Assembly (NCBI GenBank): GCA_030704615.1
Contig: CM060731.1
Location: 41,044,001-41,108,000, forward strand
Length of the DNA stretch: 64,000 nt
Direction of reading: 5' to 3'
Source of the DNA: Takakia lepidozioides
Taxonomy: Eukaryota > Plantae > Bryophyta
In this document: one piece after another, positions 17,849 to 64,000 of the stretch
How the letters are laid out: every line of letters begins with the position of its first letter
How positions within the stretch are numbered: the stretch's first letter is position 1
Made by a program: the position numbers and the translations under genes
Notes under the pieces: generated by a model
Told to the model about the DNA's origin: nothing
Databases searched by the model: none
The model's input: only the letters and a program-made list of their open reading frames with translations

Positions 17849-20800
17849 CACTACAGCAAATGGGGGGGGGGTTTGCGACGCCAGCCGTGCCCCCACGCCC
17901 TGCGCGGCGCCGAGCGTGCGACGCCAACCCTGCGGAGCCTTTTTGTGAAGCCGGGCCGTCACAACCAAACCCCGCGGGTCGCCACCTGGCATCGGGGCCA
18001 GGCGGCGACGCCTGGCCGTCGCACGGGTGGATGAAGGGCAGAAGACAGCCCTTCCGTGCGACGCCCACGCATCGCCCCCCAGCGAAGGTAGAAGGCAGCC
18101 CTTTCTGGCGACAACTGGCCGTCGCCAGCGGAAAAAGATAGCCCTTTTTTGCCTTTTCTTTCATCGCAGCCCTTATTTGCGACGCTCGGCCGTCGCATGG
18201 TGGCATGAATAGCAAAAGGCCTTGGCATCGCAAACAGCCCGGCTGCCCTATTCTTACCAAAAAAAAAAAAAAAAGGTCGCAGTATGTGATTTTTATATGT
18301 CCAGTGAGCTCAATGATGATGCACTAATTAGGTTTTGGCTAATGAGTTGCAAGTACGAAATCCCCTTTACCATAGACCAGCTCGAATCTAGTTTGAATTC
18401 GAGCCGCGCACAATGTGGCATGCTCACTCAAATCGATGCCTGTAGTACATATCACTTAGTGCAAATTTTGTTCCAAAAACTCTGGATACTACCACATGTG
18501 TAGCGTTAATTTCATGTAGGAACTCATCAGACGAGGATTCAGACGCACAGTGTGTCAGAGCTCATCAATCTTGCATCCGAATTGCGTCAGAGATCAGAAG
18601 TTTAATGTAAAGTCTTAAAGCAATAATAAACATGAAATTAGTACACTCACCTGATACAATGGCAGCCAACATGATATGGCTTTTTTAATTGAAAGATACG
18701 GAGGGATGTTGTAATTCACCATGGTCACCGGCCAAGTGGAATGACTACATGACTGGACAGAGAATGGGTTGACCCCATCCGAGGAGAAGCCGAGGTGGAC
18801 ATGTCGTGGGTCCTCTAAGAGAAAAGGCCACATCTCTTCAATATGCCTCCATGCTTGTGAATCTTGTGGCCCACACACCTTTCCCGAGGGGCTCCGATGC
18901 GAGGTGTGCCATCTCATGAGTCTGGTTAATTCGGGGCTTGTCGTCGCCGTTTGTGACCCCCGGCTTCATAAATCCAAAAAAATGCGTCACAGTTCGCGAC
19001 GCGTGGGGGTCGCAGGTAGCGATGGCAGGGCTTTCTAGGTTTAAGTTTAGGGCCTTTGGGGGTTCTTTGTTTTTTTTGTTTTTTTTTTCATATGATACTG
19101 GGGTAAGGTGTTTGTTTTTCTTTATGGTTTAGTTTGTTGTTGTGGATCTTCTTGTAGATTGTGACATTCATTTTGATATTCTCTTGATACCACATCTGTA
19201 TGTGTTGCTCCAACATATTCATTGCCTCTGCCTTTTTTTTTTTGAAAGACTACCAGCCACAACCATATTTGATCAAACATAGAAATAAGCTACAATATGC
19301 ATGTACATGTACAATCAATCGAATGGATGGGTATAGTTTGGTACGAGAATTGTTATGTAGCTTTGATTTTGTGTCTAATCAACTTGAACATCATCATCCG
19401 GAGCTTCTTCATCCTCATCAAGCTGCAAGTTTTCTTGGTCATCGGATCATCGTCATAAATGGCCCGGTCCTCAAAAGGCACCTCCAAATCATCCTCCACC
19501 TCGTTGTCAATGGTCGTGTCTTCATCTCCTTCTCCAACATCCGTATCTTCTGGAACTTCATCATATAGGGTCCGGGATGCATTGTCCGGGGCGTCATCAT
19601 CATCTTCTACCCCCTCTACCCAACCTCCATCATCAGCATCATTATGACCAGTCTCTCCGTCCACCCCTCCTCTTCCTTCCACATCCGAGGGGCTTCCTCA
19701 TCCACCCTTGTCATGTACTCCGTGCAATAGAACATAACTTCTTGTAACGTATACCCCTCCACCATGCTACCCTCCGGGTGCGTCATTTGTCTTACAAATC
19801 CTTTCAAAGTCTTCATATAACGCTCAATGAAGTACATCCACCGAGAATGAACGGGGCCGACAATCGAAGCCTCTTCCACTAAGTGCACTACCAAGTGCAC
19901 TTGGATGTCAAAGAAGGAGAGAGAAAGGTGCATCTCCAACATACACATTACCTCCGCCGTCTCCTTCTTCATGCGTGGAAAATCCACTTCCTCCAACTCT
20001 TTGGTGCAAATCCACCGGAACAAGCCTCCCAATCTATAGATTGTCTCACGATCCTCGGGAGTCAATGTCCTACGTACTGCAATGGGCAAGATGTCTTGCA
20101 ATAGATTGTGGTAGTCATGAGACTTCAAACCATGGACCCGTCTTCTTCGCTGACCTTCGTACGGAGGGATGACCCATAACCAGCTGGTGTTTGGACAGCA
20201 CTTATGGTGGCTATCATTTTCTTGTATTCCTCCTTTGTCCATTGCCAAGGTGCGCGCCTATATTTCCACCGTACAACACCCTTTGGGTCCACACCATTTT
20301 GTTCGGCCCATAGATGGCGCATGCGACCCTGCTCCTCAAGTTCTTTTCTAACACCGAAAGAATCTCCTTTGCAGCCACTCCCTTCTTTGCCAGCGTGCCA
20401 TGAAGAACCCGAAAAAGAGACGAGCAGACATTCTTCTCAATATGCATGGGATCTAGAAGATAGGTCCTACATATATCCCCACCCACAAATACTTATATAA
20501 ATTTTTTTACGTGGAAGTGACAATGCAACGCATACCAAATGTGCAATATCACATGCATGCATAGGGATTTGACAGTGTTTTTATGGAATATGTACAACCC
20601 AATATGGCAATTCATAGAAGATTGAAAATCGTTTCATGCCGGGCAAGTCCACTTCACCGTCCGTGCCCGCAAGAGCCTCCTTCAATCGGTCCTCCCAAAA
20701 CTGCCCGGACGGTGTCATAGGGGGGGGGGACGTACTTCCTCTTTGCCATCAAACAAGTGTTTCTCTCTTCTTCTCCATCGATGGCTCAAATTTGCGGTAG

Positions 20801-21402: not shown

Positions 21403-22572
21403 CTAACTCATTAATAATACTGAGCCTCCTCCCAAACGGCTCGCAGTCAAGGCATGTGTCCGAAGACGCCTCTGGTTACCACGGCCACTTGCAACAATCT
21501 CCGCACCAGAGGACATGAAGATACTTTCAGGAAGGTGAAACCGGCTGACATTGTCATCTGAAATGTTACTGCCAACTCTACTTGATGCCCTTGAAGCCTC
21601 CTGGCACGCCCGCCATTCTTCCCAATCACGTAGCTCTTGTTCATCTTTTAGAATTCGTTCCTTGAATGTAATTGGGGACAAGCGATTGAAATGATAAATG
21701 TTAGACCCAAAGTGGAAGTTTTGCATATGGATTTTTTGAGGTAAGAGTGCAAATGCAAATGCAAAAGAATTGGAAAATCAAATCCTGAACAAACAACAGA
21801 ACAGTGGGATCTACGTGCCTACCAAGGTAATCAAGTTCTTTTTGTTGTGGGATCCAAACACGAGGATCAAGATATCTTCCATACCAGGCCCAGCAGACAT
21901 GGTCTCGACCAATAGGCTTATGAGAACATTTTGCTCGATTCTCGCTAATGTAATCAACGATTGTTGAAGCTCCAGCCATCTCCGATATAAAAGGCCACAC
22001 TGCTTTTGTCATATCATCCCGGTCATGCAAGCCGTTTGGTGAAGGCTTGAATGAGAAATGGAAGAATCCAGTATTTTGTGGGTTTTGCAGGCCCTTTGAT
22101 GGCTCATCATCTACAAGAAATATTTGCCCCTGCGTAGCAAACGGTCTACCAGGGTACCTAACAATAACATTTCGAATATCCTTCACAAGATATTTCATCT
22201 CGGGCCTGATATAACCGGTGGTATCCTTACAATCCTCAGCAGACCATATGAAGCAAAACTTCTTCGCTATTTTCGTGGGGACGAAGCTCTCCAATATCCT
22301 ACAAAGAACACCTCTATCAGCACATGACCAAATGGCCACGTGAAAATGCTTCAATGCAAGGTCTAGAAACTCCAAGACTCCAGGACGAGGCACCACAAAT
22401 GGTCTGTCAGGAACTTGAAGTGTCACAATTCTGAAACGAAATTTCTCCTTAAATAGTTCACCGCCGGTTGGGGGTGGCCGATAACAGAGGAGTCCGTTGA
22501 CACTCAAAATTAACAACATCCGTTTCCTCTTCCCCGCTGTTGCATGTAAAGGATGAGAGACAAAGTTATCCT
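21403..22572 (-). CDS. FCP1/NIF-like (HAD-fold) phosphatase-domain gene, probably CACTA-associated; catalytic Asp replaced
   Basis: KRKRMLLILSVNGLL..RPGVLEFLDLALKHFHVAIWSCA..FCFIWSAEDC..VKDIRNV..IFLVDDEPSKGLQNPQN. Acceptor near 22572; probable further exons ~21660-21403 and ~23340-22770. Confidence 0.75.
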
Positions 22573-25500
22573 GAGCAGGTTAATCACCACTGACATTAGT
22601 GTTTCTGCCATGAAAATACCCATGACCCAGAATGATTGAGTGTATAGAAGATCAACACGATTGTGTAGAAAATGGCAAAATCTTGCACAATGTTGTAGGC
22701 TTGGAATGTTTCAAGAGGAGGGTTAATATTGCTAAGAAGAGGAATGTTGACTGCCAAGTGGATGTTCAAGAAAGTACCTTGTACGGAGGGAAATTGATGA
22801 AGGTATCGTGCTGCATCCCCGCCTGTTGAGAAAAGATGGAGTTAATTAGTGCATAACCAAACGAACAGAAAAGAGAAGAAAGTGGAGAAATGATATCGAA
22901 TAATACCGATGTTGCCTTATTAAAAAGTCTCGCTGGCGGGCTTGGGATCCTAACGGACGTGTTTTGACGAGACCCCGGTATGTCCGAGGTATTCATTTTC
23001 TTCCTCGAGTCTGCTTTGTCTCTGAAGAGGGACTTCTCTCCGGTGGAACCGATTTATAGAAGAGACGGAAATGGTTTGGGGGCCCTATTCCACTTCCTTG
23101 GTGCAGAACATTGCGCCAACACTACAGGGTCGGGAAGCCGAGAAGTTGCAATTGAAATTTCGTCCTCGTTCTCGTCCAAAGGGTTGCGGAGAAGGGAAAC
23201 GGAATGGAAATTGTCCCTTAAGCACTCCACATCCTGAATGGAATTCACACTTAACGAAGGGATTACCTCGGAACAGATTTCCAATGAAGATGTCGTTTGA
23301 CGGGAATGTCACAATCCGCAGATTTTCTGGCCTGGAGTAAAACAAGAACATCAGATCAAGTACTAAGGAGACAGAGAATGAAGCAGAAATGAAGCAAACA
23401 ACGAAGCAGACAATGAAACAGAAACCTAATGTACACCGAAGCACGGACTGAAGCACTGAAGCAGAGATGAGAGTGCACAGAAGAATGAAGCAGGATCCAA
23501 ACGAATTGAATTGAGAGCAGGCCATATGAATTGAGAACATGCCAACACATGACTTAAGAACGGGCCAACACAAAACATGAAACATAAGACAAAAAGAGGG
23601 AGTTTTCAATGCTGTACCTGCTTGTGCCGGCCATTTTGGTGCCCCTGCAACCACAATCCTTCGTTTGATACTCTCTTCCGCACCTCGGCCTGCCGGTAAT
23701 TGCACTGTGCTCTCGCCTCTGCACTCGTCAATCTCCACTCGCCACTGTCCTGTCTCTCCTCCCCACTCTTCAAATTTCACCTATTTCACTCTCTCACCTT
23801 TCACCCTCTGCTCTCTGTGCACTCGGCCAAATCTGCTCTCTTTCTCTCCACGCTCCAGTGTACAGTCGCTACAAAACGCGCTCCAAAACTCTTCCCTTTC
23901 ACGCTCTCCTCTCTCAACAGTCAAGCTCCCACTAACGCAGCGCTTACGCGTAGAAAATATGAAGCCCAAAGGTTGGGCTCAAAGAGCGCACCCCTTATAA
24001 ATGACCTTCAAGAATGATCTGAACCATCGCCTCCGTCCGAAATCGAACGGTCGCGCAGCCCAAATGGATGTTCTGCCCCATCCACGCAAACTAACATTAA
24101 TACTGTCCATCCACACACATGAAATTAGTTCAACTTTTGTTCCAAATTGAATGACGAATGCACACATGTTTAGACAGACAACTCGACAGACGAATGAAAA
24201 AATGACGAAATGACTGTAATGACGCCATTGGTCAGACTCTGCAAGTTGCAACCCTCACGCTTACAAAAATCTTAAAATAGATTCAAAGCCGCCAAACCTT
24301 AACCCACACCCCAAACGCACATGTGACCACCCACGTGACACGCCTAGGCAGTCGTTTCGAACTCAATCTGCCAGAGGACATAACACTGTACCTACGGATT
24401 CGTCACATTGTATAATCATTGTCTCATTATGAGCCGTCCACAATCACTTTCGGCTGTTAGCCGCCAGGCGTCAATTTTCCCTGACAACACTCGCAAGTGC
24501 CATTTGACATACGGCTTTAAGGATAGTATATGGCCCCTCGTGTCGGGCATTCCTCGATTTAAGGTCCAGAGCCAACATAGGGACTGCCCATTTATCGAGG
24601 GATACCCAGCACGAGGGGTCCATCCCTACATTAAACATGTGCAAGCAAACAACACACGATAGAGTATTCCGCACACCTGAAATGCTCCGCCCTCGCTGTC
24701 CAATGCAATGCGCTGGCATGTAATGCCCCGCCCTGCCCAAATGTTGTATTCACTGTAACAAAAAAAATCTCAAAGTGCTTTATGGTTCACCTCCGGATTC
24801 CTCCTAGCTAATTATAATGATCGATTGTTAATGTGCAGTCCAGAATTAGTTGTGGCGATTAGCCGCATGACTTCATTTGTCCAGGCCACTTGTCAGAATC
24901 GACATCCTTCACGCTTATTCCAGAGTCTGCTGTCAGAGCCGCACGATAATGATGCCAGATATGTAATCCTACTAACGGACAAGTACGATAGAATTCAGTC
25001 TGATCGTGGCCGTTATCGTTTGTTCCATAATTGATGTGACAATGGCTGCTGTCAATAAATGGAAAATTGTGCACACTTTCAATGAAGCCGTGATTTCGCG
25101 AGTTGAAATAAGCCGTTCGATTCCGCCTTAATCCACGGTGTCCACAATCGATCCGGGAGAGAAAGCATACCACACTGCCATTGGAGCGATTCAAAGATGA
25201 AAGTTACTTGTCACCTCTATATAACATCCGACTCCACACAGCACCAACTTCCTACTGTGAACCTCTCACTTGCTTCTTTTCTCTCACGCACCTCTCTGGA
25301 CATCCTGCACCTCTCTAGACAACGTGTACCTCTTTGCCTGTCCTGCACCACTCTGCCCATAGGGTACTTCTGAAGCAGCCTGTGAGTCTCTCCCTGCTTC
25401 CTTAGTCTCGGGTGTCAACTGCACATTTCTCACAAATGATAGTATAATACTCATTTTTTTGTGTACTCTTCATGTGCACCAGCTAAACTTGCTTTTGTTT

Positions 25501-26551: not shown

Positions 26552-27760
26552 GTGTGTGTTGTATTGCTGCTCATCATGGTGTCTCACGGTTCTCTCCCAG
26601 TGGCTTCTGAAGTTTCAGCATCTGCTTCCTCACAATCCTCTTCCGCTGGTGTGGTCACCAGCTCCTCGTCCCCCCGTGTGCATCGCGTTCATCGTGCTGC
26701 TTTAGCAGCAACTCGTTCCCGTGACTATTGTGCTACTCCTCGCTCTACTTATCCAGCTGCTCCTCTACGTCACACAGCGCGCCCTAGTTCACCATTGTTT
26801 TCAAGGGAAGACACAGACCCGCACCCATTTGAGGAGTATGAAGAACCTTGGCATGAAGAAACGCTGGATTGGGACGTTGACCCCGTTGTTCTAATTCCAG
26901 AAGAGGTCCTAGCTCAGGTGGAACATGACCTCTACCAGCAAAAGATTCTGAATCTCCATGAACAGCAACCTCTACATGAAGATGCTCGTCGTTATGACTG
27001 CTTCCTAAACGCCATCAGAAGGGAATTTAGCGAGCCTCCTATCTTACCTCACTACAGCGCATGCAACTCGAAGACAATTGCCTGAACACGCAACATCTTC
27101 CTGTGGTAACTGACGAGGCTACATTGTGGGAACAAACCATCCTTCCGATCGCGAACATCAAACAGCTAGCTTCTCGACGACAAAGTCTCAGCTAGCAGTT
27201 ACTGGGCATTCCCGCAACTTTGATATTTGGTGACAAGGAAGCAGCTCTTACGTTTCGCAAGGGAGATTGCCTCATAAACCCTCTATGGCTTGACTTCTTT
27301 GTGCAAGGCCCTGGTGCTTTGTTGTTGCATGCAATTCGTTTTTGCAGCACTGTCTCTTTGGACTGACAGGTATCGTATTGTGACCTTCTTCATGGCATGA
27401 GCGTTGTGAACGAAAGGGTAGACACATATGATTTGATAGTCTACCCTGCTCGTATGTTCGAAGACGAATGGATAGTGCACTTACAACGAGAAGACCGCAT
27501 AGCTAACTACCCTCTGAGCTCCATACCGATCCGTGAGTGGGGTTATCCCATAGTGCATGTGGATTTTTGGCAAAAAACCCCTATAACTTGGCAGTTCCTA
27601 ACCGCTGCTGACTACAAAAGAGAAGACTTCTTGCTGCTCCGTATTAGCACCACTCAGGTGTGGCAGTTTGAATCCATCTCCAGCACGTCTTCATCATATT
27701 GCAATCCCACGGATAGACGAACGGGTACTGGAGGATTTGGAGAGGCAGGGAGACCAGCTC
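26552..27760 (+). pseudogene. Extra ORF upstream of gag in Gypsy copy 1 (unknown domain, broken)
   Basis: YDLIVYPA-x19-YP..IVHVDF..WQFL..WQFES aligns with the copy 2 ORF 35895..36809. Confidence 0.6.
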
Positions 27761-28889
27761 GTGTACCTCCTGAGAATGTAGAAGTGTGTAAGAACGCTCC
27801 TCACCCCTTTTGCTTGACATCGTCCGTTGAGATGCCTAGTACCACTAAGTCCTGGTTGCCGTTCAGATTCTCCCAAGAATACAGACAACGTGCCCATTCC
27901 CCCAGTGACCCCTCCTTTGATCAATGACTCAAAAGCTAAAAGAAAGATGGAACACCTTAATTTTAGTGTCACCAAACCTCTACCCAAGGTGACCAATGAT
28001 TCTGACAGTGAAGTGCCTTCTTTGGTTGGAGAAGAGATCATTACACCTGGCATTCATTTGGATAACTCCTCCCCCGGAGTGACAATGGGTGAGGTGTCCA
28101 GATTTCCGTCTTCATTAAAGATCCTTATGAATCAGGCTGTGGCTATGGATGCTGTCCAGAAACCTGTGGCAGTACCCAAACCCCATGCCACTGGTCCCAA
28201 GGTCCAAGCTCAGGCCTATCCAGAATTCAGATTGGGAGAAGACTATGATAATTTTCTAGAACTGTTTGAGAGTATAGCCTTGTTGAATGGAGTCCCTGAA
28301 GATTTCAAAGTTCATTCCTTCAAAATGGCACTTAAGGGACAAACCAGAACCCTACTCAATGCTGATTTAGTGGGAGAAAGGAGTCCTTCGTGGAAGCAAG
28401 TTTTGGACAGCGCCACCAAGCTGTTCAAACCTGATGAGCTTCCCTTGGAGACATTTGGAAAATTGTACAATAGGAAGTACAAATAAGGTGAACCTTTGTG
28501 GCAATACTACTTAGACATCAAGGTAGGAGCTGCTTCAACAAGGGTGATGGCCAAGAAGTGGTCATCCCTTTGACTACTATGCAGTACTCTCGCAACATCA
28601 GCAGAGCCAACCTGTCTCAGATCAGGGCTACACCCCTCCTGCTACGCCATCCGCTTCCTCCGGGAGTAATGTGATCCACCTCTACCAAATCCCCGACATT
28701 AATAGCCTTCGGCACTGGTTAAAGAGGCCTCCCCGCACCTCCTTCCAAGAGCCTAAGGACGTGTTAAGGAAAGTGACGGTAGGTTAGTCAATTGGCAGCA
28801 ATTCATGCAGATGGGAGCTCCTAAGGACTCTCTTCTCCAATGGGCCACACCTGTTGTTCGACAAAAAGGGGGTCAGCCAATACCTGTAA

Positions 28890-29165
28890 GAGATAACACT
28901 ACCTTGCTACGTGCTCAAGCTGATTTTATCATCCCTGCTATGTGCCAGAAAGTTGTACCTACAGGGCAGGCTTTCATGTCCAGAAGGACACTATCTTGAA
29001 ACAGTGGGATGGCAACGTTTGGCTCTCCGGAAACATTCCATGGTTGCTCCACTTGTTGTTGATAGAGAGTTTAGAGGGGAGATTAAACTACTAATAGCAA
29101 CCCTGAACGCATTCCGGTCACAGTCCGAAAGGGGCAAGTTATGGCTCGTATTTCTGCAACTCCTA
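28890..29165 (+). pseudogene. dUTPase-like domain N-terminal to RT, Gypsy copy 1
   Basis: Reconstructed across two frameshifts: LLRAQADFIIPAMCQKVVPTGQAF-CPEGHYLETVGWQRLALRKHSMVAPLVVDREFRGEIKLLIA-PERIPVTVRKGQVMARI. Confidence 0.8.
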
Positions 29166-32100
29166 TTAGTGACATTGAGGACATCCAGGAAGGATTCTCC
29201 CTTCAAGAGATGGGAATAGTGAATTTTGATGTAGACGCAGTCTCTGCCTTTGCAAAGTATTTTGCATCCCCTCTTGCTGAGAATGATGACACAGTAAATG
29301 AGACTCATGTCAAGGAGGTGCTAGAAACTGTGAATATAGGAGACTTGGAAGAACACCAACTTAAGAGGCTTGAACATTTGAGCAGACGTAACATTGATGT
29401 GTTTAGCAAGGGACCCACTGATCTTGGAAGAACCACCCTCGCTGAACATGATATAGAAAGTGAAGGAAAACCTGTCAAACAGTATGCCTACCGTGAAAGT
29501 GTGAAGGAACACACCTTTATACAAGAAGAGATCAAGCGCATGTTGGATGCTGGAGTTATTCGCCCCTTTGTCTCACCTTGGGCTAGCCCTATTGTCCTAA
29601 TAGGAAAGAAGGATGGTGGGATCAGATTCTGTGTAGACTTCAGGCGTCTCAATGCCATAACTAAAAGGATGTATACCCTTTGCCAAGAATTAATGAAACA
29701 GGTTGGATTTGGCATCAAGTTTCTGGCAGGTACCATTGACAGAACAATCTAAGGAAAAAATAGCATTCGTTTGTCGCATGGGCATGTTTCAGTATGAGGC
29801 TATGCCGTTTGGCCTTTGCAATGCCACAGCCACCTTCCAAAGGCTCATGGACGTGGTTCTTGGAAACCTGAGGTGGGAATGTGCTTTAGTTTATATAGAT
29901 GATATTAACATCTATTCATCATCCTTTGACAAGCATCTCATGGATTTACAGCGTGTTTTCTGTAGGCTAAGAGCAGCTGGTCTGAAAGTCAAGACAAAGA
30001 AATGCGAGTTCTGTTTTTCAGAGCTCAAGTTTTTGGGTCATTGTCTTACTGCTGCTGGCATTAAGCCTGATACTACAAACCTGGAAACAGTTTGGAATTT
30101 CCCCATGCCCACTGACAAGCGATGTGTGAAGTCCTTTCTTGGATTAGCTTCTTATTACATGAGGTTCATCAAGGACTTTGCTAAGATAGCTAATGCTCTG
30201 ACCAAGCTTCTGTCCAAGGACGTCAGGCTCTCTTGGGGGATGCAACAACAACGTGCATTTGAGAGGTTGAAGGTGGCCCTCACCACTGCACCAGTCCTGG
30301 TTTATCCTAACTTCTCTCTTCCTTTCAGATTGCAAACCGATGCTAGTGATGTAGCTAACTCTGCCATCTTATGCCAAGAGAGTGATGGCAAGGAACAAGT
30401 TGTTGGTTATGCTTCTCGCAAACTTGACAAACACGAGAAGAACTATTCCATTACCGATAAAGAAGGTCTGGCTGTTATCTTTGGGGTTAAACATTATCGT
30501 CAATATCTTCATGGCAGCAAGTTTGTGATTGAAACAGATCATCTACCACTTAAAGCCATGAAGCTCCTCGTGAGCTCAATGAGCGTTTGGCTTGATGGGT
30601 CTTGACTCTTCAGGCTTATGATTATGATATTGTTTATAAGAAAAGAAAGGAAAACACCAACGCTGATGCCTTGACTCGCATTGAACCTCATGTCCCTGTA
30701 CCTTACAGCAGAATCGAGGATCTGCTAGTTGACCTTTCAGCCACTGACCCGGCTGCAAATCCTGATCAGACCACAAACTTTTATTCCTGCATGAGTGTTT
30801 CTCATTTGGATAAGGTGTTGGGCTGGGATTTGCTTCTTAGGGATGGCACTTAAGGTCACTGTTGGTACTGGCACTGCAGGCAAGGGATTCACTCCTGTGA
30901 GGGAACATGAAGTTGCCTTCTAACCTGAATTTGGGCTGGTTCCCGCCTCTCTTGTATGCTGAACCATGTTCTTTAATTGATGCTCTCTCACTGGTACTAT
31001 TATGATTTATAAGCCTTGTCTGTTCTATAGTAAGTTGTCCTTCTGTAAGGGTTCAAGGTATAATGGCATGGAGACCCCAGATGCATGACACTCCTTGCTA
31101 CTTGGTTCTAACCCACGAAGATGATGGCCTATGTATGGCAGACATGGAGGATCTTCTGCATGAGGCACTACTCCATAAGTGTCAACACGGTGTCACGCAG
31201 GCAGGAATAAGTGACCTTGTTCGACGTCAGGTTCTCTACAACCAACACTTGCACGTAGTGAGGGAAGGAGTCATGTACAGAGTGTTCAAGGGTGTCCTCC
31301 CAGCCTTATGGAAGTGCCAATGAAGAGTTCTCTCCTTGTAATGTTTGCATTGTATCACGACTCAACTTTTGCTGGTCATTTTGGGGTGAAGAAGACTGTT
31401 GCCAGGATCAAAGAGAAGTTCTATTGGAAAGGCATGTGTAAGGATGTAGCCTTGTATATCTCCCTGTGTGTGGGCAGCAATGCCAAAGCCAAACTTCCTC
31501 GTGCCCCGGTGGTTCTCGAGTTGCAGTCCATTCCCGTAACCTCTGCATTAGCTAGGGTGGGTATGGATCTCGTAGGACCTTTGAATCTCACGTCGAAGGG
31601 CAATAGTTATATTATTGTAGCTACGGATTATCTGACCACAAGTGGGTAGAGGTCCAACCACTGGTGTCTAAGGATAGTGATGGTGTAGCTCAGTTTTTCT
31701 TTGATGAGATAATCTTGAGGCACGGATGTCCTTTGGAAATCCTTACTGATCAGGGCAAGGAATTCTGCAATATTTTGATGTTGATGATATGTCACAACAT
31801 GGGTATTCATCAAGCTACCACTCGACCTTATCACCCTCAATGCAACGGACTCACGGAGCGCTTCAATCAAACCATGTGTCTCATGCTGGAGAAGTGTGGA
31901 GGTCTCACCCAGGAATGGGATGTGCTTCTTCCTCCTCTCATTTTTGCTTTTAGGACTGCTGTGCATGCCAGTACTCGCCGCACTCCCTTTGAACTTCTCT
32001 ATGGTCGTCCTTGTGTCTCTCCTATCCATCATACTCCTCTCAACCCGGTGATTGCGGAACCAGAAGATTGGGAATTATTTGTTACTGATCTGCTGGCTCA

Positions 32101-33199
32101 TCATTCTCGGATCATAGATGAGGCTAAGTATAATATCTCCAAGGCTCAGCTAGCACAAGCCAAGCAGTATAATAGGCGAGTGGTTTATTCTTCCACATTT
32201 GTTGCTGGTCAAACAGTCTGTATCAAGGTGCAGCATGGTGCAATCGAGTCCAACGGTAAGACTCGCATTGAAGGGCCCTATCTGATTCATGAAATGACTG
32301 CTGGTAACAGGGCTAGATTGTTGCCTCAGCATCCTTCAGTCAAGGAGATCCCTGCGGAAGTGTCTATCGCTGATCTGTTGCATTCGAGACTACAGTTTGA
32401 TCTTAACATGTGTGAATGTGGAGGGAAAGACAGTGGAGATGTCTCCCAAGACGAAGGCTCGACAATGATCCCGGAGCTTTTTTGAAGGTATCCAAGCTGT
32501 GGCTTCATTCCAATTTAGCTCATGTGCTGATTTCACAGCACTTACAGCATTTCAAGCCACTGGGCTGACCATATCAGAAAGCAATTGTCTGTTGGTCTAA
32601 CTGGGGATAGGTAACATCGATGACACGGAATGATCACATCAGCACCACCAGAGATGAAAAGAAGAACAAACCCAAGCCCTAGCGATTGGGAAATGTGAGA
32701 GCTCGCTGTGTATTCACTTTGCTCTTAACTCCACCTATACTCCTGCATCATTGCAAGGAAACACACCATTTGGCAAAGTCCATCGGTGAAGACTCTGTTT
32801 GCGTCTCTATCATCCCCTCACAAACAGTTGCAAGGGTTCCTAACAAATAGGCAGAATGAGGAGCTAAACAACAGACCTCTCTAAAATCATTCCACTTCCA
32901 CACGACCTCGAGTTGTGGGGCTAAAGAAAAGATAGACACCGAAAAAACTCAAGTCAAGCTTACATAACTTACCAGCAAATACTTCAGAAAACAGAAGAGG
33001 AAAGACATAGCAAGGCGTTCCTAGAGTGACCCGCTCTCTGGCCTAGGTCATGCACGCGAGGGGGTTCACATGGAAAGAGGCCCTAACCCCTCTGACTGGC
33101 CTTTCCACATGTACTCCTGTGGCTGCTAAAAATGTTACAGGAGCAGTGGCTGAGGAAAACAGTCGTCTTATTATTTCCTAACAATTGCATAATATGCAA

Positions 33200-34120
33200 A
33201 TATCAGTTGGCATTGAGAGCATTGTTAACACAAAGAAATGTGATGTGGTTGGGCTTCAGCGCTTCCCACATTATTTGCTCATACATCTCCAAAGCCTCAA
33301 TCCCACACCCATCTTGTTGCACTTACCCTGCAATCATGGTACTCCAAGACACCACATCTTGTTCAGCCATGTTGTCGAACATTCCCTTTGCATCTTTGCT
33401 GCACCTACATTTGCATACATGTCCACCAGGGGAGTGTTCAGAATGACATCTGGTACAATTGCAGCTTTGACGATGTCACCATGGACTTCTGTGCCCTTTC
33501 CCAGAGCTGCCAGGCTCGCGTTGGGCATACATGGTCCACCAGGGCATAGTTCAAAATGACATCTGGTACACACACCAGCTTTGACAATGACACCATGGAC
33601 CTCTGCAGCCATTTTCCAGGGCTGCCAGGCTCCCATTTGGCATAGGTGTCCACCAGAGCAGAGTTCAGAATGACGTCTGGTACATTTCAGCTTTGACAAT
33701 ATCACCGTGGACCTGTGTGTCCATTCCACAACTGTCAGACTCACATTTGGCATACATGTCAGCAAGGCAGTGTTCAAAATGAGATTTGGTACAATTCCAG
33801 CTTTGACAATGTCACCATGGACCTCTGCTCCCTTTTCCAGGGCTGCCAGGCTCGCATTTGACATACATTACACCAGGGTTGTGTTCAGAATCACATATGG
33901 TACGTTCCAGCTTTGACGATGTCACCATGGCCTCTACTCTCTTATCTAAGCTGTTAGGCTCACATTTGGCATACATGTCCATGAGGGCAGTGCTCAGAAG
34001 GACATCTGGTACAATTCCAGCTTTGACAATGTCACCATGGACCTCTTTGCCCAGTTCCAGGGCTGCCAGGCTTGCATTTGGCATACATAGTGACAAAGGC
34101 TTGAGGCTCAAACATACCTG
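33200..34120 (-). pseudogene. PLS-class PPR pseudogene with a ~112-bp tandemly amplified unit (~6 copies)
   Basis: Repeated ASLAALExGxEVHGDIVKAGIVPDVILNTALVDMYAK with frameshifts; ends in DVVSWSTMIAG-like sequence. Confidence 0.85.
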
Positions 34121-34950
34121 AATTGAAACAGTCGATTGCTGATCTTGTTAGGTTGTGAACACCTGTGACTTCTTAGTGGGGATGACAGTGTTGCTTGGGA
34201 TCAACTTTGTCATGACTCCTAGTATTCCTCTTTATGGACTGGCCCTGCTAGACAAAGATTGTACTCTATTAACTGCTCCATATGACCACGTCCGTCGCCC
34301 TCAATGGGGATATCAACCATCTCCTAGCCAGATGCAGGGTTTCTAACCCTTAGAGTATGGAGGATGTGCGATAGCAAGAGCTAGTACATACCAATTAAAC
34401 ATCATGCTAGAAACCACAGGTTGCTGCAAAACTGCTCATCCCCCGATTTGGCTAAAGACAGGGAGGGGGATTGTGCTGAGCAGCTGAGAGAGAGTCTCTG
34501 TCAAAAGCCAAAACTGATACAATGAAAACATACGGTAGACCATGAGCGATGGGGGCACATAAAGCGGATGTGGTTGCAAAAAACACAAATGACCCACACT
34601 CACCTCGTTTTCCATCTGCGTCATCATTTTCCGCCATCCCCGTCCCTCTCCCGCCTTTCATATTCTTACCGCGTCTGCATATCCTTCTAGGTACTTTCGT
34701 CTTCCGCTCTCTCACAAAATACACTCACACACAAATTTCCAGGAGTTTCTCTCTCCTCCTGTTACATTGGAGAAAAATGCACACCTCGAAGATTCGTTAG
34801 CCTACACGCTCGATACCTTCATTTGGCTAAGGTAGTTTCTAAGTAGGTTGTTAACGGGACAGGTCTACTCTAAAACGGTATTAACGGGGAATGGCATTAA
34901 TGGGGAAGGTACATCAGGAGAAAAGCACCTCTGCGTGGTCTCTCCCTTAA

Positions 34951-35777
34951 CCCTTAAGTTCCCAAGCCTTTTTTTGACTTTTTACCAATTTTGGGTACCC
35001 AGCTGCAGTAAATTGCCCCTAGAAACCTACCAAAAATCATCAGGAGATTCCAACCTTATAGCAATGGGCCCAGCTCATTTATGCATGACATACCAAAAAA
35101 TGAGCCAAGTCTACCGTGGAAATTATGAGATTATAGCGTTGGCCCCGGACCTCAACTATCAGGTCCCAAAGAAAAAGTGAGAAACAAATAGGTTTGACCA
35201 AATCAAAACCTAGCTTTATCCAATTTTGCTTGCCCCAAGACCCACCATTTCCAAATCACTAGTGGAGTGGCTATGACCCCACTAAATTGCAGGGCCAACT
35301 GATTTTTGCACCTATGGTTGCTTTGCATGCAATTACATGGGGATAGAAATCTCAAAATTGACAAGAGAAAATGTGCCTCCAAATGAAGTACTTTTTTTTC
35401 TACAAATTTTTTAAAAGCCAATGGTGGATGTGTGTATGTAATGCTCACAAACCACAGGTGAAGTGCTTTTTCTAAAATTGCTAATTTTCTGCCAAAAATG
35501 ACCTTTGGAGTGCAATATGTTTTGGGCTTGTTTACCTGCCACGTCAACGGTCAACAAGCCCTTTTCAGGCCCAAAACGTAAATGAGAGATCTAAGATATT
35601 TTTTTGTAGGTCGTAGTTTTTTTTTTTCTTTTATAATTTTGTTTTTGCACCATACTCGAGACAAATCCCTTGTCATTAAAGCTTCAGGAGCGGGCCCCAT
35701 CAGATTAGATCTGCAAAAATTAGGTCAAACTGCAAATTCAAAGTGACCCGATTCAAGTCGCTTGGGAATTTAAAGGG
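34951..35777. mobile_element. piggyBac-like non-autonomous DNA transposon A
   Basis: TTAA|CCCTTAAGTTCCCAAGC ... GCTTGGGAATTTAAAGGG|TTAA: TTAA on both sides and a 17-18-bp imperfect TIR. Confidence 0.75.
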
Positions 35778-35940
35778 TTAAGGGAGGAGCCAATAAACAA
35801 GAATATGGCACATATTGTAGTTCATCCTGCAATGGCTAGATTCCCTCTACCTACCTTTTCGACATTTGGATGAATAGACACTGGATGATGACCGTTGGAA
35901 AAGGGCTTGGATGAAATCAGTTGGAAACAATCTATTTTAA

Positions 35941-36809
35941 AAGAAACTCCCGCTGGTCATTTTGAGTCGATTTTTGCCAGCATCGAGCGTGCTTCGGTTG
36001 ATCCTAGCCTGGTGGTTGAAGTTGATTATCCGCCTCTTGGTGCTCCGGTTGAACGCTCTGAATTGGTCCTCGACACGCCTTCTGATCACTGGGTGGCTCA
36101 GCTTGAGTTGACTGCTGCATTGGAGGGTCTGAAGCCCACCTATACTCTGCAAGAAGAAGCAGAACAAAGGCGAAAGTGCATCCAAGCGTTTGAAGGGGCT
36201 AGACCGGCCAAGGCCCTGCAACGTTTTTTTGTTGCGGAGATAGCACGCAAGCTTGCCAAAGACAAGCTCTTGAAGGGTTGGTGGCTCTCGTGGGCTGAAG
36301 TTGGTGTTCTGCAGTTCACAATAGTTGGGGAGGTTTCTGGCGAGTGCGAGAACTTCCTTCCGCCCAATTTACCCAGTGCGCATCGTCTGTGGGAGCTGGT
36401 GAAAGGTGGCAGTTCTCTTGTCTTGGCCAACCTGAGGCCCACCTGGAAACCTGATTACAATGTGGGCATAACTTGGGATGACCATGTTGCAAGCATTCCC
36501 GTCTCTCGCTTTCCTCATACTGTGCATGATATTTTGATTTTTCCTGCTATTGTGTGTAGACAGGAAAGATTGGGTTACTACTTGCCTGGATTTCTTGTTA
36601 CTTATTATCCGGTGCATACACTGCTTGCCAATGAGAAGTTTATCCGCTCCATTGTTCGAGTGGCTTTCTCGCTCAAAGTGGACGAAGAACTGTGGCACTT
36701 TCTGGGTGAAGGTGTTTACATGCTTCACAAACACAGATTCATAAGTGGCTATTGCATCAAAGATTGGGAGTCCAAATTGCGGCCTGCACGATCCTCAAGC
36801 AGAAGGTAA
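35941..36809 (+). CDS. Open extra ORF (~290 codons) of unknown function upstream of gag in Gypsy copy 2; true start probably deleted
   Basis: Uninterrupted frame; C-terminal HDILIFPA-x19-YP..IVRVAF..WHFL..WES is homologous to the copy 1 ORF. Confidence 0.65.
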
Positions 36810-37569
36810 CCACTTGTTTTTAACAAACAGACTACAATGCCTGTCACTACTCGGTCTGGCAAGGAGCCATGGAATGTACTAGATGAATTGGATAATGTGG
36901 ATCTTACTAATGATGTGAAAGTTACACCCTTCCTGATCCTATGTCTGAAACCTTGTCTCCCGAGGAGCCACTGCCAGGTAATGATACCAGTCCGACCCAA
37001 GGGGTCCCTCCAGCCTCTGATAATGTGCCTAACCTCAATATTCAGGGCATTTGTGATGCTATGGCTACGTTGTCTAGTTGTCCTGCTCAAGTCTACCTAC
37101 AAAAGCATCATTATCGCAATGAGAGGCATATGGTAGAGATGATGGATGAGCGCATGAGGTTTAAAAATGCTAAACTAGGGAAAAGCTGTCTACCTGTTGT
37201 TCATTCTACTCATCAACATACTTCCGACTGTTCTCATGGGGTTGCCATGGTTAAGGGTGGCTTTACAGAGGCCTCTCCTACATTACTGGAGGAGGTTAAA
37301 ACCTTACAAGAAGAGCTGCACACTCAGCTTCAGGCTGTCAGGGCAGAAAGATCCTGGAGGGCCGCACCTGCCAAGCCTCCTCCTGTTGACTCTCATCGTG
37401 GCCACACTCAGACTGGCCCACGGTATGAGGTTCAAGGTAAACGTGTGGCCTGTTTCATTAATTGTGGGTCACTTGAGCACTGGACCCGCTTCTGCACCTA
37501 TGCCGCTCTTGTCCCTGGTATGATTGAAGAACACAAACGAATTCAACGCGAATAGAGGGGCAAACAGCC

Positions 37570-37608: not shown

Positions 37609-38280
37609 TAGTATCCCACAAACCCTGCAAAGGATGACTCCATTGTTTCTGTGATGTTGTCCAATGAATTCAAATTAATGCATTGTGAAGCCAATAAGAA
37701 GCTTGGGAGGGAAAGAGTGCACCTTCTCATGACTCAATGTCACATATGGCACCTATCGTTTCATGTGCCTGTTGACAAAGGCTGTACCATGTCTGCTGTT
37801 CCATTGTCCGTGGTTCGACTACTTGGTCTCAAACTCACTCCAGCCACAAGTCTGCAGGTGACCATTGCAAATGGCACGCGTTATGAACCCCTAGGTTTGG
37901 TCACCATCCCTATTAAGGTCAGTTACAAGTCGGTCACACCGACTTGTATCGTTACCATTGGTGAGCAGTTGCTATTAGGCTTGGATTGGATGTGTGCTGT
38001 AGGGCCCAAGATTGATGTGGTTGAAAACATCATGTGGCTTGCCAGTGGCAGCTCCTCACCCCACAAGGTGCAGCTTAACTCTGTCTCCTTGCCCGCTGGT
38101 TGTTCCACTGCGCATCTCTCCCACATGCGAACCATTGTTGTTGAAACAAGACGACAGACTGGTGAGCAATACAACTGGACACGTTACTTTAACTTTGCCA
38201 AGACAACTCATTCCACCTTGTATCAGTGGCAGTCACCTTTGCCTAGTAAGAAGAGTGGCCCTCCCATTCCAATCCCAGCT

Positions 38281-38552
38281 AACACCACTCTTCTTCGCAA
38301 TCCCACTGACTTTGTTATATCTGCCTCCTCCCAAAGGATTGTTTATCTTGGCCTCACCTTTCTTTGTCCACAAGGTCGTTATCTTGAAGTCGAGGGATGG
38401 AAACGCTTGATGCTTTCCAAACATTGCTTGATTGCATCTGGGGTGCTGGATCGGGGCTTTCAAGGGGAGCTCAGACTTCTTGTTGCCAACCCAGAACGCA
38501 TACCTATCACCATCCGCAACGGTTAGGTCCTCGCACGACTCACTGCCACCCC
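38281..38552 (+). pseudogene. dUTPase-like domain between protease and RT, Gypsy copy 2
   Basis: LLRNPTDFVISASSQRIVYLGLTFLCPQGRYLEVEGWKRLMLSKHCLIASGVLDRGFQGELRLLVANPERIPITIRNG*VLARL, in frame with the protease. Confidence 0.82.
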
Positions 38553-41500
38553 ATTGATAGATTTAGGAGAGGTCCAACATGCTTTAAGATTTGCTGACAT
38601 TGGCCTGTCTGATGATCCTGTAGATCAATTGCATCTCCTGGCACAATCTGTGGCTGCACCCAAGGTCTGTCCCCTCACTCCTGCGCAATCTGCTCATCTT
38701 GACTAGGTCATGACTGATATCAAAATGGGCTCTAGTCTCACTGAAAATGAAAGGTCTCGTCTATATCATGTTATTCGTGACAATCTTGATGTTTACAGTG
38801 CTGGTTCTCATGACTTGGGTTGTATCGATGTTCTCCATCATGACATTGTCACTGAGGGTAGCCCTGTCAAACAATATGCTTATAGAGAAGCGTCAAAGAG
38901 TGCGAAATCATGCAAACCGAACTGACCAAGATGCTTGATGCAGGAGTTATTAAACCCTCTATTTCCCCCTGGGCCAGCCCCATCATGTTGGTTGCCAAGA
39001 AAGATGGTACCACCCGTTTCTGTGTTGATTTCTGACGTCTCAATGCCCTAACCAAAAAGGATGTATATCCCTTACCTCGCATTAATGATACTTTGGATCA
39101 ACTCAACGGTGCCACTCTCTTCTCTTCCTTGGATCTTGCTGCGGGCTTTTGGCAGGTTCCACTCACAGAGTCAGCCAAGGAGAAAACTGCGTTCACCTGT
39201 AAGATGGGTCTCTTTCAGTTTGAGACCATGCCTTTTGGATTATGTAATGCCACTGCCACCTTTCAACGTCTCATAGATGTTGTTCTAGGGAACTTGCGCT
39301 TGGAATGTGCATTGGTATATGTTGGTGACATCAACGTTTACGCAGTTGACTTTGATTCTCACATGCGGGATCTGAAGCGCGTTTTGTGCAGGCTCAGAGG
39401 AGTACACCTCAAAGTGAAAGCCAAGAAATGTGATCTGTGCATGACGGAGCTTCATTTTCTTGGCCACCTTCTCTCAGCTAAAGGCATTAGCCTTGACCCT
39501 ACCAAAATTCAGGCTGTCTGGGAATATCCCACTCCACATGACAAAAATTGTGTCCGTGCTTTCCTTGGGTTAGCCTCTTACTATCATCGTTTCATTAAAC
39601 ACTTTGCTCACATTGCCGTTGCGCTTAATCAGTTGTTATGCAAAGATGTTCGATTTCTTTGGGGCAGGTCCCAAATCACTGCTTTTGAGAAACTCAAAAT
39701 CGCCCTCACTAGTGCACCCATTCTGGTCTTTCCTGATTTTTCACTACCCTTTATTCTTCAGACCGATGCCTCTGACTTGGCTGTTTCAGCTATTCTATGC
39801 CAAAAGAGAGACGGCAGGGAACATGTGGTGGCCTATGCTTCCAGGCGGTTAAATGAACTATAGCATCACTGATAAAGAGGGCTTTGCAGTCATTTTTGGG
39901 GTGAAACATTTCAAGCAGTATCTCCATGGTTGCCCCTTTGTTATTCAGACTGATCATCTTCCATTGAAGGCTCTCAAAACCCCACAAGCACTCTCGGGAC
40001 GCTTGGCTCGGTGGTTACTTACTCTTCAAATGTTCGGGTACGACATTGAGTACAAGAAAGGCAAAGCCAACAGCAATGCCGATGCTCTCACATGCATTGA
40101 GACTAAGTCCTCTGCCCCTTATGTTACCTTAAATGACCTTGCAAACTGCTTACCATCTGGTGCTTCACCCTTGCCTTCTTCCTCTCCTGACGGATCCGAT
40201 TTACTTGCTTTGTTTGCCACTGTTCCTTTTCTCCCACCTGATCTCATGTCTGAATGGGATTTGCTTTCATTTTCTGCTGCTTGAGGTTGGTTTAGAGTGT
40301 TGTCCTGTCACTGAGGTCATATTCTAGGTATGATATCTCTCTCTCTTCTCTGATTGAACTGTGCTTTTCTTCTTCTAGTGCTGGTTTTGGCACTGAATCC
40401 TCTCCATAGGGATATCTGCTTATGTGCTTCATTATCCTTGGTTGCATCTTCATGAAGTCTCCCTTGTCATTCAGTTGAGCTAAAAGCTTCCCATAGAGAT
40501 CACCGAGGCGGACACTCTGTTATGCTCACACTAACCCAAGGGCTGGCTATGGAAGTTGCAACCATGGATGATCTACTTCACCAAGCCCTCCTCCAGAAGT
40601 GTAAGACCAACACTCATCTGTCGGGCCTCTCTTCCCGTCTCCTCAGGCAAGTAAGCTATCATCTCCCTTCTCATAGGGAGCATGAAGGTAAGTTGCTTAA
40701 GGTAGTTCATGTTCATGGGCAAGAGACTGTTGTGGAGGTCCCTACTAGGAGCTCTATGCCTGCTTTACATGAGCTTTACCATTGCTCACTATATGTTGGT
40801 CATTTAGGCATTGACAAAACTGTCAAGAGACTCCAAGAAAAGTACCATTGGAAGGGGTTAACTAAGGATGTGGCAGATTTCATTTCTAAGTGTGTTCCAT
40901 GTAAGTCCAAAACACTGCTGCCTAGGACCATCGCTCCTCTTAAATTACAACCAATTCCGGTGACTGAGATGTTTGCCCGAGTTGGTCTTGATCTTGTTGG
41001 GCCCCTCAAAACTACGACTAAGGGCAATAGCTACATTGGTGTGGCTATTGATTACATGTCTAAGTGGATTGAGATCCGACCATTGGTTGCTAAGGACAGT
41101 GACGAGGTGGTTCAATTCTTCTTTGATGAAATCCTGCTACGCCATGGTTGTCCCCTTGAAATTTTAACTGATTAGGGTACGGAGTTTTGTAACCAGCTGA
41201 TGGAGGTTGTGTGCTTTAATTTAGATGTCAAGCATCGCTTGACTGCTCCCTACAACCCCAGTGCAACGGGCTTACAGAGAGGTTCAACAAACCATGTGCC
41301 AGTTGTTAGAAAAGAACGGGGCTCTCATTGAAGAATGGGATATTACTCTACCCATTCTCATTTTTGCCTAAAGGACCTCGGTACATGCTAGAACTCGTTT
41401 TTCCCTTTTGAATTATTGTATGGCCGCAAGGCTCGCACCCCTCTTCATGTCCCTGTGCTTCAAACTTAGGTTGAGGAGCCCATCATATGGGAAGACTTTC

Positions 41501-43084
41501 TTACTCACCTCACTTCTCATCGTTTGCGTTTATTAGAGACTCCTAAACACAACATTCAAGTTTATCAAGTTGCTCAGGCTAGAAATTATAACCGTAGGGT
41601 TGTTTACTCTGAAATTTTTTCTCTAGGCCAAACTGTTTGTGTTCGGTTGCAGCTTGGCAAACAGGTACCAAGTCCAAGATGCAGATCGATGGGCCTTATC
41701 TGATTAGTGCGATTCTGCCTGGTCGACAATACCGTCTCTTTCCTCAACATCCTTCTACGACGGAGATTGCAGGGACTGTTCATGTTTCTCAACCTGTCCC
41801 TTCTAAGCTGTAGTTTGATTTGACCTGCCTCAACGTGGAGAATCGTCATGTGGTTTTAACTCCCAAGAAGCGTGCTCGACTTGATTCTGATTCAGTTGCT
41901 ACCTAGACTTACTCATGACACTATCTTTATTCAGCTACTTCCTACCTAGGATCCATCTCATTTCTCTTTGTAGTTCTCCAGGTTGCACACCTCACAAGAT
42001 CGGGTTTTTCCCCGACAAGGTTTTGCCCTTCACTCAAATCGCAGAGCAAGGTTTTCCTTGTTGCGGTTTTTTCATCCTATTTTGGTGTGACCTTGGGCGA
42101 CACTGCTCCCTGTCTTGAGCATAGTGTTTGTTAGATAGCTCGCTGGAGCTCGCTTCTCTGTGTGCCAGGAGGCTTTACATATGTAATGGCTAGATTCCCT
42201 CTACCTACCTTTTCGACATTTGGATGAACAGACACTGGATGATGACCGTTGGAAAAGGGCTTGGATGAAACCAGTTGGAAACAATCTATTTTTAAACTAA
42301 GTATTGTCTTCTGTTAACAGCTAGTTTATCTCTAAAATTGAATAAGGTGGCGTCCTATCTGGACAGACACCCGGATGGAATCCAAATAACCAATCAGGGC
42401 TTGCCACTTGGTTAGATGAGATTGTGGGTCTTCGTTTATAAAAGAGATCAATACGACGCTTAAGGCGGCGGTGTACGTTTGGTGTGAAAACCCTAGTGTA
42501 CCTGTGTGTGAGTTTTGGATGAAGAAGGTGTGAGTGAGGATGTGCTGTTAATCCATGTGAATGATTCTGACTCCTCTCCGTTGGATCCTGCCTATCTCGC
42601 TAGCCTGCTTTACCGAGTACACATCCCCGTGATAGCTCAATACCCGTAGAAGAAGAAGAATAACGGGGTGGGCGAGAATCTGGCTTTACAATCCTCTGAT
42701 CTACTAAAAAACCTTCCAATCATATATTTCTTATCTAGCTCTCATACTAGACCAAATGAATGGATGGATGTTCATGATCAAGAAGATTGTCAACAAGCAC
42801 TGTGGCTATATTGTGATAACCAGTGGTGGTGTTCATCAATAGAAATTGCCACTTGGAGGGGTTAGGTGACCTTTGGTACTTCGATTCTGATCGATTTTGC
42901 AGTTGCAATCCACTAGTTTCACAGTATGCCACATATCTGTCATCCACCTTGTTGTTGAAGAGGATGAACCTACAACTCACCTACCATGGAGGGCTAACTA
43001 CCTATAACTAATAGCCTTCACCAAGCCAGCTCTATGTACCCTCCTACTTGTTCCTAGAGTTAGGTGATAGATAGGTTACCTCGG

Positions 43085-45365: not shown

Positions 45366-46333
45366 TACCCAAACCTCCTCGGAATTTGAGGTTTAGCTCC
45401 GTTGGGAGGCCGGTGAGGCAGGTGTGCCCAGCTTGGCTACCAAAGATTGTCCAAACATTACCAAAGATCGCCATGACTGTGATAGTTCCCAGGTAAGCGT
45501 TGTTCTTGTACGAGTCTATGTTGCAATCCTACCTTAGTCTTTCCTCCTTCTCTAGAGAACTGTGGTCTGTTCCCATGCTTTCTTGTGCTAGCGAAGCCAA
45601 TGCCAATTTGTGCGATGTCCAAAACATTGGAACTGAAGTTACACCAACGATGAATCTGCACGAGTTTGAGCAATCATCTACCAGTGAGTACAAATATATC
45701 TAATCCGTATGTGAAGGCAGTTCAAATGAGAATAATAATGAAACATGTGTACAGCGTCCCCCTATATGTACCTGAAGATATGTGCTACCGGCGGGACCTA
45801 CATTCCTCTATGCAGTTCCAATATAACTCATATCACCCTTGAGCACGTACTACTCTATACAAGGTCAATGTAAATGGATGAGATCAACTTGAAGCGGTCC
45901 AAACATTTTGAACATTCTTTTCTAGTTGCAAGCCGGTTTCCCTTACAAGTATGAGGGAAAACTGTGCGCTCAGACCAGCTATTTCACACAATTGTTAGAC
46001 TGCACAGATTGAGATTTTACGTGAATTCAAACCTGCGAGAGTGCTTAGCGCTACGTTCCTGGTTGAGGCATTGGGTGATCATTTCTCTACCATCCTGAAA
46101 GTAGGAGCTCACCCCTCCCCAGCAATTCCCCGGGACTGCTCCTCGGCTCCATCTCACTAGTTTTTTTATGAAAATGTCTGAACATTATCTGTAATTACCC
46201 ACTGGGAGAGTTGTAAGAGTTGAAGAGACATCATGACCAGGAGAGTTGAAGAGACATCAGCAGCTCTCCCAAGGGTCTTTTGCACCATTCTATAAATGCA
46301 TTGGTCAGCCGCAGTACTTGTTATTAACTGGTT

Positions 46334-63929: not shown

Positions 63930-64000
63930 CTGTGTGCACATCTGATGCATCGGACACATTAATTAGCACAGAATAACTTACAACTAACTAATTTTCAGCA

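Follow-up and report, generated by a model that had tools for sequence, protein, structure and literature searches.

Extra open reading frames (ORFs) upstream or downstream of gag-pol are known in plant long terminal repeat (LTR) retrotransposons (PMC7264820, PMC6317226). In plant Ty3/gypsy elements of the Tat/Ogre group such a frame (eORF or aORF) lies upstream of gag (Steinbauerova et al. 2011, as cited in PMC4408406 and PMC7264820), and it is reported with a plant mobile domain or a transposase-28 domain (PMC4408406). dUTPase domains are found in fungal Gypsy elements, in one family between protease (PR) and reverse transcriptase (RT) (PMC2864245), and LTR elements with extra ORFs occur in bdelloid rotifers (PMC5408684). 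Here we describe the regions upstream of gag in two decayed Ty3/gypsy elements, both on the + strand, which lie within 26.5–42.6 kb of a 64,000-nucleotide stretch of the Takakia lepidozioides genome (Bryophyta; GCA_030704615.1, contig CM060731.1, positions 41,044,001 to 41,108,000 of the forward strand). This whole stretch is referred to as the window, and its numbering is used throughout. Judged from its variants, the region upstream of gag in the family of the second element (element 2) is genuine coding sequence that was under purifying selection during the spread of that family. None of the libraries searched contains a detectable relative of it, and it is perhaps an in-frame N-terminal extension of Gag.

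Like the eORFs of Tat/Ogre elements, this is a lineage-specific, sense-strand coding region with no assigned role that lies between the 5' LTR and gag. Unlike them, it contains neither a plant mobile domain nor a transposase-28 domain, since no Pfam family matched either upstream ORF even at E≤10, and it is in frame with gag. The present elements also differ from Tat/Ogre in being compact, in carrying a dUTPase-like domain between PR and RT, and in having an RT that is nearer to non-plant and metagenome sequences (47–61% identity) than to the angiosperm matches listed (35–42%). With the fungal and bdelloid elements they share the acquisition by a Ty3/gypsy element of a dUTPase domain (fungi) and of additional ORFs. 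However, the hosts belong to different kingdoms, and the available portions of PMC2864245 and PMC5408684 describe no comparable upstream ORF. The word dUTPase is absent from the plant survey of Neumann et al. 2019 (PMC6317226), and a literature search for dUTPase in plant elements found none described in titles or the beginnings of abstracts. Extra genes in LTR retrotransposons are raw material for retrovirus-like complexity, and few have functional evidence. Comparison of genomic copies here singles out one orphan region that is kept by selection, which provides a defined target for expression, proteomic and structural work. If the regions of the two families are related, they would mark a plant Gypsy lineage characterized by a dUTPase and a conserved 5' protein.

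Selection on the upstream frame of element 2

Contigs of other genomic copies at ≥80% likeness were compared with the upstream ORF of element 2 (ORF0), and the 40 best-supported of 105 variants were used, 36 of which fall within the ORF. These were divided by their share in DNA run X1 into polymorphic variants (0.06–0.90) and private ones, at which the window departs from ≥90% of the other copies. Fourteen of the 16 polymorphic variants are synonymous and 13 lie at third positions; against an expected neutral synonymous fraction of 0.277, the binomial probability of 14/16 is 1.0e-6. The 16 variants assigned to private decay include only six that are synonymous (Fisher P=0.0046 versus the polymorphic class), and the four seen only in a contig of run X6 include one. 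When the cut was moved to 0.8, a recount gave 11/11 synonymous among polymorphic variants versus 9/21 among private ones. Read in the other five frames, 1, 2, 2, 2 and 11 of the 16 are synonymous, the last in the antisense frame that shares wobble positions. The synonymous excess among family copies indicates that this frame was of consequence to the element as the family expanded. In this respect the central claim of an earlier sequence-only reading of the window, that a real protein is encoded upstream of gag, is upheld for the family of element 2.

Codon-position bias agrees with this in part. The ORF has a chi-squared of 34.1, and periodicity is high in 35943–36342 and low at 36543–36842, despite the coding shown there by the variants. 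The length of the frame is less informative. It had been noted that the frame stays open while gag-pol is broken, and it is indeed open for 305 codons (35892–36809), with at least six frame switches and at least six in-frame stops in pol, but the first 17 of these codons are LTR sequence and the ORF is truncated at its 5' end. Breaks in gag-pol number about 12–13 in 5 kb, or one per 390–420 nt. By our estimate 864 nt would remain unbroken by chance with P of about 0.1, that is about one time in ten, so the openness is unremarkable and is not by itself evidence of selection on the window copy.

The features of element 2 are as follows.

35828..35942, + strand: 5' LTR remnant, first 115 bp only (111/115 identical to 42182–42296)
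35943..36809, + strand: ORF0, 288 codons plus TAA, 5' part missing (open frame, contigs, synonymous variants, codon-position chi-squared)
36525..36773, + strand: C-terminal block of ORF0, HDILIFPA...KDWES (alignment of the sequence-only reading; 12/14 synonymous polymorphisms at 36567–36800)
36810..36836, + strand: 27-nt spacer from the ORF0 stop to the gag ATG, T-rich and ending in CAG (sequence; candidate acceptor look)
36837..37555, + strand: gag, decayed; it starts as MPVTTRS... in the ORF0 frame, later changes frame, and near its end has a zinc-knuckle-like CX3CX4HX4C
37612..41879, + strand: pol (protease, dUTPase-like, RT, RNase H, integrase) with many breaks (Pfam; tblastn with the relative P0006 and others; tblastx versus element 1)
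42182..42621, + strand: 3' LTR, with 42621 a candidate end (...GTACA then CATCC; contig depth at element level past 42296)

The placement of ORF0 between LTR and gag is thus as had been described. The CATCC that follows 42621 consists of the same five letters that precede the 5' LTR. A contig from run X5 that fits 35831–35942 continues with 28 letters, 27 of which match the window at 42297–42324 and not the ORF. Contigs that fit from 35943 onward (three from X1 and one from X6) have 104–125 other letters upstream of this position, and the 30 upstream letters seen in them contain, by eye, no stop in the ORF0 frame. Element 2 has an internal deletion in the window, running from about LTR position 116 into the interior of the ORF. 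The first 17 'codons' of the open frame are therefore LTR sequence, and there is no start codon. The primer-binding site, the leader and the start of the ORF are missing, and the sole methionine of the 305-codon frame is residue 276.

Two families

Each element has the domain order (PR)–dUTPase-like–RT–RNase H–integrase in Pfam, and the assignment to Ty3/gypsy (Metaviridae) follows from PR, RT and RNase H followed by an integrase with an H2C2 finger and a DDE core (Pfam; tblastn with Gypsy polyproteins). A second RNase H, of archaeal type, marks the Tat/Ogre lineage; in Pfam the RNase H matches of the pol ORFs here are to RT_RNaseH and RT_RNaseH_2 only. The RT regions of the two elements are only 64.6% identical in DNA over 1302 nt. 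On this divergence they are two different families and not, as had been supposed, two copies of one element. In tblastx, protein identity between them is 67% in RT and 46–51% in the dUTPase-like part.

The dUTPase-like domain lies between protease and RT in both elements (28829–29219 in element 1, 38215–38526 in element 2). In the window its match is below the Pfam cut-off (18.9 bits versus 22; E=1.4e-3), and it is clear in the relative P0006 (PF00692, E=1.5e-8), which aligns with element 2 over PR–dUTPase at 173.6 bits. P0004 (61% identity) and P0006 (58%) are the closest RT relatives among the matches listed in a word-indexed protein search. P0004 begins downstream of the protease and P0006 at the protease, so neither includes gag or upstream sequence.

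Summed contig depth, which was used as a guide and is not a copy number, is 1891 over 36206–36772, comparable to the rest of element 2 (2005–3850). Over 26567–28267 it is 108–154, comparable to 28835–29401 of element 1 (112). The upstream region is part of the element.

The features of element 1 are as follows.

26552..27085, + strand: 5' coding-like stretch in frame 2, from an ATG, Ser-rich and then acidic (196-codon open frame; chi-squared 34.6, 300-nt windows up to 47)
27367..27831, + strand: putative upstream ORF of the sequence-only reading, with an ATG at 27397, running into the gag ATG without a stop; block YDLIVYPA...WQFES at 27427–27675 (chi-squared 5.7)
27832..28531, + strand: gag start MPSTTKS... 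and capsid-like ORF at 27860–28486 (sequence; contig of a relative)
28829..32485, + strand: dUTPase-like, RT, RNase H and integrase, protease region absent (Pfam; tblastx; tblastn)

The 196-codon frame as a whole spans 26495–27085, and the putative upstream ORF belongs to a 186-codon frame spanning 27367–27927. No LTR was found for element 1. The same sense position, between LTR and gag, had been claimed for the ORFs of both elements; it stands for element 2, whereas in element 1 the ORF can be placed only as lying next to the start of gag. In run X7, a relative is represented by a 4182-nt contig that fits 26569–29473. Compared with the window, it has an additional 1036 letters at 28531/28532, corresponding to the nucleocapsid (NC)/PR region missing from the window copy, and element 1 accordingly lacks PR because of a deletion. 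The contig also has about 185 extra letters between 27859 and 28095, just past the start of gag, and lacks the 121 letters at 28637–28757 of the window, which are skipped by both DNA contigs and contigs guessed to be RNA.

Searches for relatives of the upstream ORFs

By sequence comparison the upstream region of element 2 is an orphan. An exhaustive phmmer/HMMER search of 1.84 billion representative proteins with its ORF (35943–36806) gave no match at E≤0.001, and a word-indexed search of 5.8 billion proteins, at near and at longer lengths, gave no relative. In PDB, phmmer found no match (best E=1.7 and 1.1). With both ORFs, the ESM Atlas gave no usable match, and a phmmer comparison with 120 Gypsy polyproteins yielded no hit under E=1. 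Neither ORF matched the known gag families in Pfam (e.g. Retrotrans_gag, PF03732). No homologue was found in metagenome contigs searched with the ORF of element 2 and with a PR–dUTPase alignment, or in viral and prokaryote genome contigs searched with the same ORF. Two outcomes that had been named as refuting the earlier reading, a known gag N-terminus and a captured host gene, were not encountered in these searches, in which no gag family, eORF domain or host protein matched.

Neither ORF contains a hydrophobic segment (maximum Kyte-Doolittle mean over 19 residues of 1.09 in element 2 and 0.51 in element 1), which, together with the position 5' of gag, bears out the view that the protein is not env-like. 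AlphaFold2 models of the 305-residue ORF of element 2 alone and of a two-row alignment of the C-terminal blocks failed (predicted local distance difference test scores, pLDDT, of 35.6 and 29.9). Neither model was good enough to be searched by fold.

Relation to gag

The two families share a gag start, ATGCCT, encoding M-P-x-T-T-[KR]-S. In element 1 the open frame runs without a stop from 27367 past the ATG at 27832; the distance between the two, 465 nt, is a multiple of three. The ORF of element 2 is likewise in the frame of the gag ATG at 36837, with one TAA (36807–36809) between the two. Agreement with the gag frame in both elements has a chance of 1 in 9 if the frames are free. Just past the gag ATG of element 2, the variants at 36869, 36878 and 36887 are all at third positions of frame 0 (counted by hand). 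Since each ORF shares the frame of the gag start that follows it, an extension of Gag at its N-terminus is no less likely than an accessory protein made separately.

Contigs from runs X6 and X7, which are only guessed to be RNA, are colinear over both upstream regions, and a 601-nt contig from these runs crosses the junction of ORF0 and gag. No splice joint between ORF0 and gag was seen in the contigs. The only joint of any kind within 35800–36920 resembles a strand-switch artefact, and contigs drop rare forms. The end of the spacer in element 2, a pyrimidine run followed by TTAAC and CAG, has the look of a splice acceptor. In both elements, the 30 nt or so that lead up to the gag ATG (36810–36836 and 27803–27831) also contain a pyrimidine-rich motif, ACC.CTT.T..TT.ACA followed by AG, that resembles a splice acceptor or another cis-signal.

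Retroviruses offer examples of Gag with N-terminal extensions, including the MA/p12 domains and the glyco-Gag of murine leukaemia virus. The arrangement here is similar in that the extra sequence is 5' of the capsid and in frame, and an internal AUG could still give a short Gag. The parallel is one of arrangement and does not extend to sequence or fold evidence. The case here also differs in the stop that intervenes in element 2, and in size, as at least 288 codons, and more in an intact copy, is large for such an extension.

Relation between the two upstream regions

The motifs that had been aligned between the two ORFs are present exactly as listed, with gaps of 19, 12, 7 and 20 in element 1 (27427–27675) and of 19, 13, 8 and 18 in element 2 (36525–36773). 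The further claim that the protein is conserved in both copies, which was to be judged by pairwise alignment with shuffle statistics, is not supported by that measure, as unconstrained shuffles reach the score 4–5% of the time. When the alignment is held colinear with the gag ATG, its score is reached by 1/300 shuffles at ±40 and ±60 codons and by 18/300 at ±20. Since the band was chosen after the alignment had been seen, this result is suggestive only. The distance from the C-terminal block to the gag ATG is 156 nt in element 1 and 63 nt in element 2.

The gag regions, which are homologous by position, provide a yardstick. They are less alike than the upstream ORFs, with a best score reached by 872/1000 shuffles. 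At such divergence and decay, the lack of significance is therefore compatible with a common origin. Codon periodicity is high in 26600–27099 and is low beside gag in both elements. It does not decide the case of element 1, because it is also low at 36543–36842 in element 2, where the variants point to coding. On grounds of layout, homology of the two families' upstream regions is likely, and the alignment is borderline. A shared origin is plausible because a rare layout, including PR–dUTPase–RT, is common to both, the only 5' similarity being the colinear block.

Interpretation of the upstream regions

We tentatively favour, at rather less than an even chance, a reading in which the stretch upstream of gag in element 2 is a real, selected coding part of the element, likely an in-frame N-terminal extension of Gag ('ORF0-Gag'), that is shared in very diverged form with the family of element 1. 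In the family of element 2 the extension may now be split by the stop. In an intact element the upstream region would be translated from full-length RNA ahead of Gag, probably continuous with it, and the protease of the element would probably cut the N-terminal region off. The conserved internal ATG would likely also yield an ordinary short Gag, and the TAA of element 2 would have arisen later, in this copy or in its family. A Gag-associated function is likely; conceivably the N-terminal region helps Gag to assemble particles or to handle RNA.

Besides the conjectural nature of this last step, a number of observations weigh against an extension of Gag shared by the two families. The alignment of the two ORFs is poor (16/66 identities in BLASTP, E=0.10), and the Smith-Waterman score of 42 is reached by 88/2000 and 100/2000 shuffles. 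Extending element 1 upstream, with X at breaks, gives a score of 48 that is reached by 37/1000 shuffles. The N-terminal halves show no likeness (score reached by 1785/2000 shuffles), and tblastx of the two elements finds no alignable stretch 5' of the dUTPase region. In element 1, 27085–27832 has no codon periodicity (chi-squared of about 5). In element 2 the TAA, 27 nt ahead of the gag ATG, closes a frame that is clean right up to it, and the T-rich spacer carries insertions in other copies behind 36813, 36816 and 36826. One diverged contig has a net change of +5 between 36774 and 36826, which would bring ORF0 and gag out of frame with each other there. The conserved gag ATG has a purine at –3, fitting an independent gag start. 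The variants themselves are taken from collapsed contigs and from the best-supported rows only.

Several of these points suit the reading first proposed for the locus, a stand-alone accessory gene. ORF0 would then be a first cistron ending 27 nt before gag, and Gag would be translated after reinitiation, by way of an internal entry site, or from an RNA spliced at the acceptor-like CAG. The stop that exactly closes an unbroken 288-codon frame, the spacer that tolerates insertions and the good context of the conserved gag ATG all speak for it, and extra ORFs upstream of gag are known from the available accounts of plant Tat/Ogre elements (PMC4408406, PMC7264820). However, element 1 has no stop before the gag ATG, and the frame agreement in both elements would be left to chance. 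A gag placed behind an ORF of 330-plus codons needs a special mechanism; none is indicated, and the only joint in the contigs over 35800–36920 is the artefact-like one mentioned above. We regard a separate gene as a serious but somewhat doubtful possibility. The earlier description of a lineage-specific accessory protein is thus sound as to a selected orphan coding region in the family of element 2, but a Gag extension explains the in-frame ORFs at least as well, and the anti-silencing or particle role suggested with it is conjectural. A bolder version, to which we give little credence, is that of an undescribed, dUTPase-bearing lineage of plant Gypsy elements whose orphan 5' gene is conserved and expressed in the manner of retroviruses. 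ORF0 would be translated from unspliced RNA and Gag from RNA spliced at the acceptor-like site that lies a few bases upstream of its ATG, and ORF0 would serve as an accessory factor proper, perhaps one that counters silencing by the host.

The weak alignment and the unlike N-terminal halves could also mean that only the ORF of the element 2 family is real. The frame at 27367–27927 in element 1 would then be an open frame in a non-coding leader, the motif match would be due to chance, and the 5' regions would be unrelated. The motifs were picked by eye, the region lacks periodicity, and by estimate chance alone would give 0.3–0.8 or so frames of about 186 codons in the six frames of 64 kb. Against this, the open frame adjoins the gag ATG and shares its frame, and the best local alignment lies at a colinear distance from that ATG, its score being reached by 1/300 anchored shuffles. 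Periodicity is also low at 36543–36842 in element 2, where the variants prove coding. About 1 kb of extra sequence before gag in two related families is most simply explained by shared descent. We therefore consider an accidental frame in element 1 unlikely. Least probable of all, and very much so, is that the region is a piece of host gene picked up by the element, or a decaying remnant that does nothing for it. Capture of host sequence by LTR retrotransposons does occur, and no retroelement domain is recognisable in the protein, but the searches of 1.84 and 5.8 billion proteins returned no relative, and the synonymous excess in the family points to a frame that mattered during its spread.

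Other features of the window

Immediately upstream of element 2, 35072–35700 is a very high-copy repeat whose contigs in the DNA run sum to a depth of about 10^5. Run X6 leaves 35072–35638 uncovered, which is no evidence either way. Farther upstream, 33407–34088 consists of about six units of a 110-bp tandem repeat with 76–80% matches. It is satellite-like, and its summed contig depth in the DNA run, about 3–4 x 10^5, is far above all else. Pentatricopeptide (PPR) repeats, considered as a candidate for 33.3–34.1 kb on the minus strand, have no Pfam support, and the region is this 110-bp tandem repeat. Downstream of element 2, about 460 bp beyond the candidate end of the 3' LTR, 43084–43639 contains two tandem units of about 276–280 bp that are 92% identical.

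Genes and gene fragments identified by Pfam are as follows.

61274..63962, – strand: NLP-type gene (GAF_NLP, RWP-RK, PB1)
46328..46936, + strand: stearoyl-ACP-desaturase-type fragment
14348..15463, 19616..20257, 21701..22579 and 11173..11658, all – strand: further ORFs, RING-finger, DUF4218, NIF-phosphatase-like and a further RT_RNaseH_2 fragment

DUF4218 is presumably a family associated with plant transposons. Inverted and direct repeats of 200–700 nt with 75–95% identity at 15606–17444 and 7445–8954 are likely the ends of other transposons.

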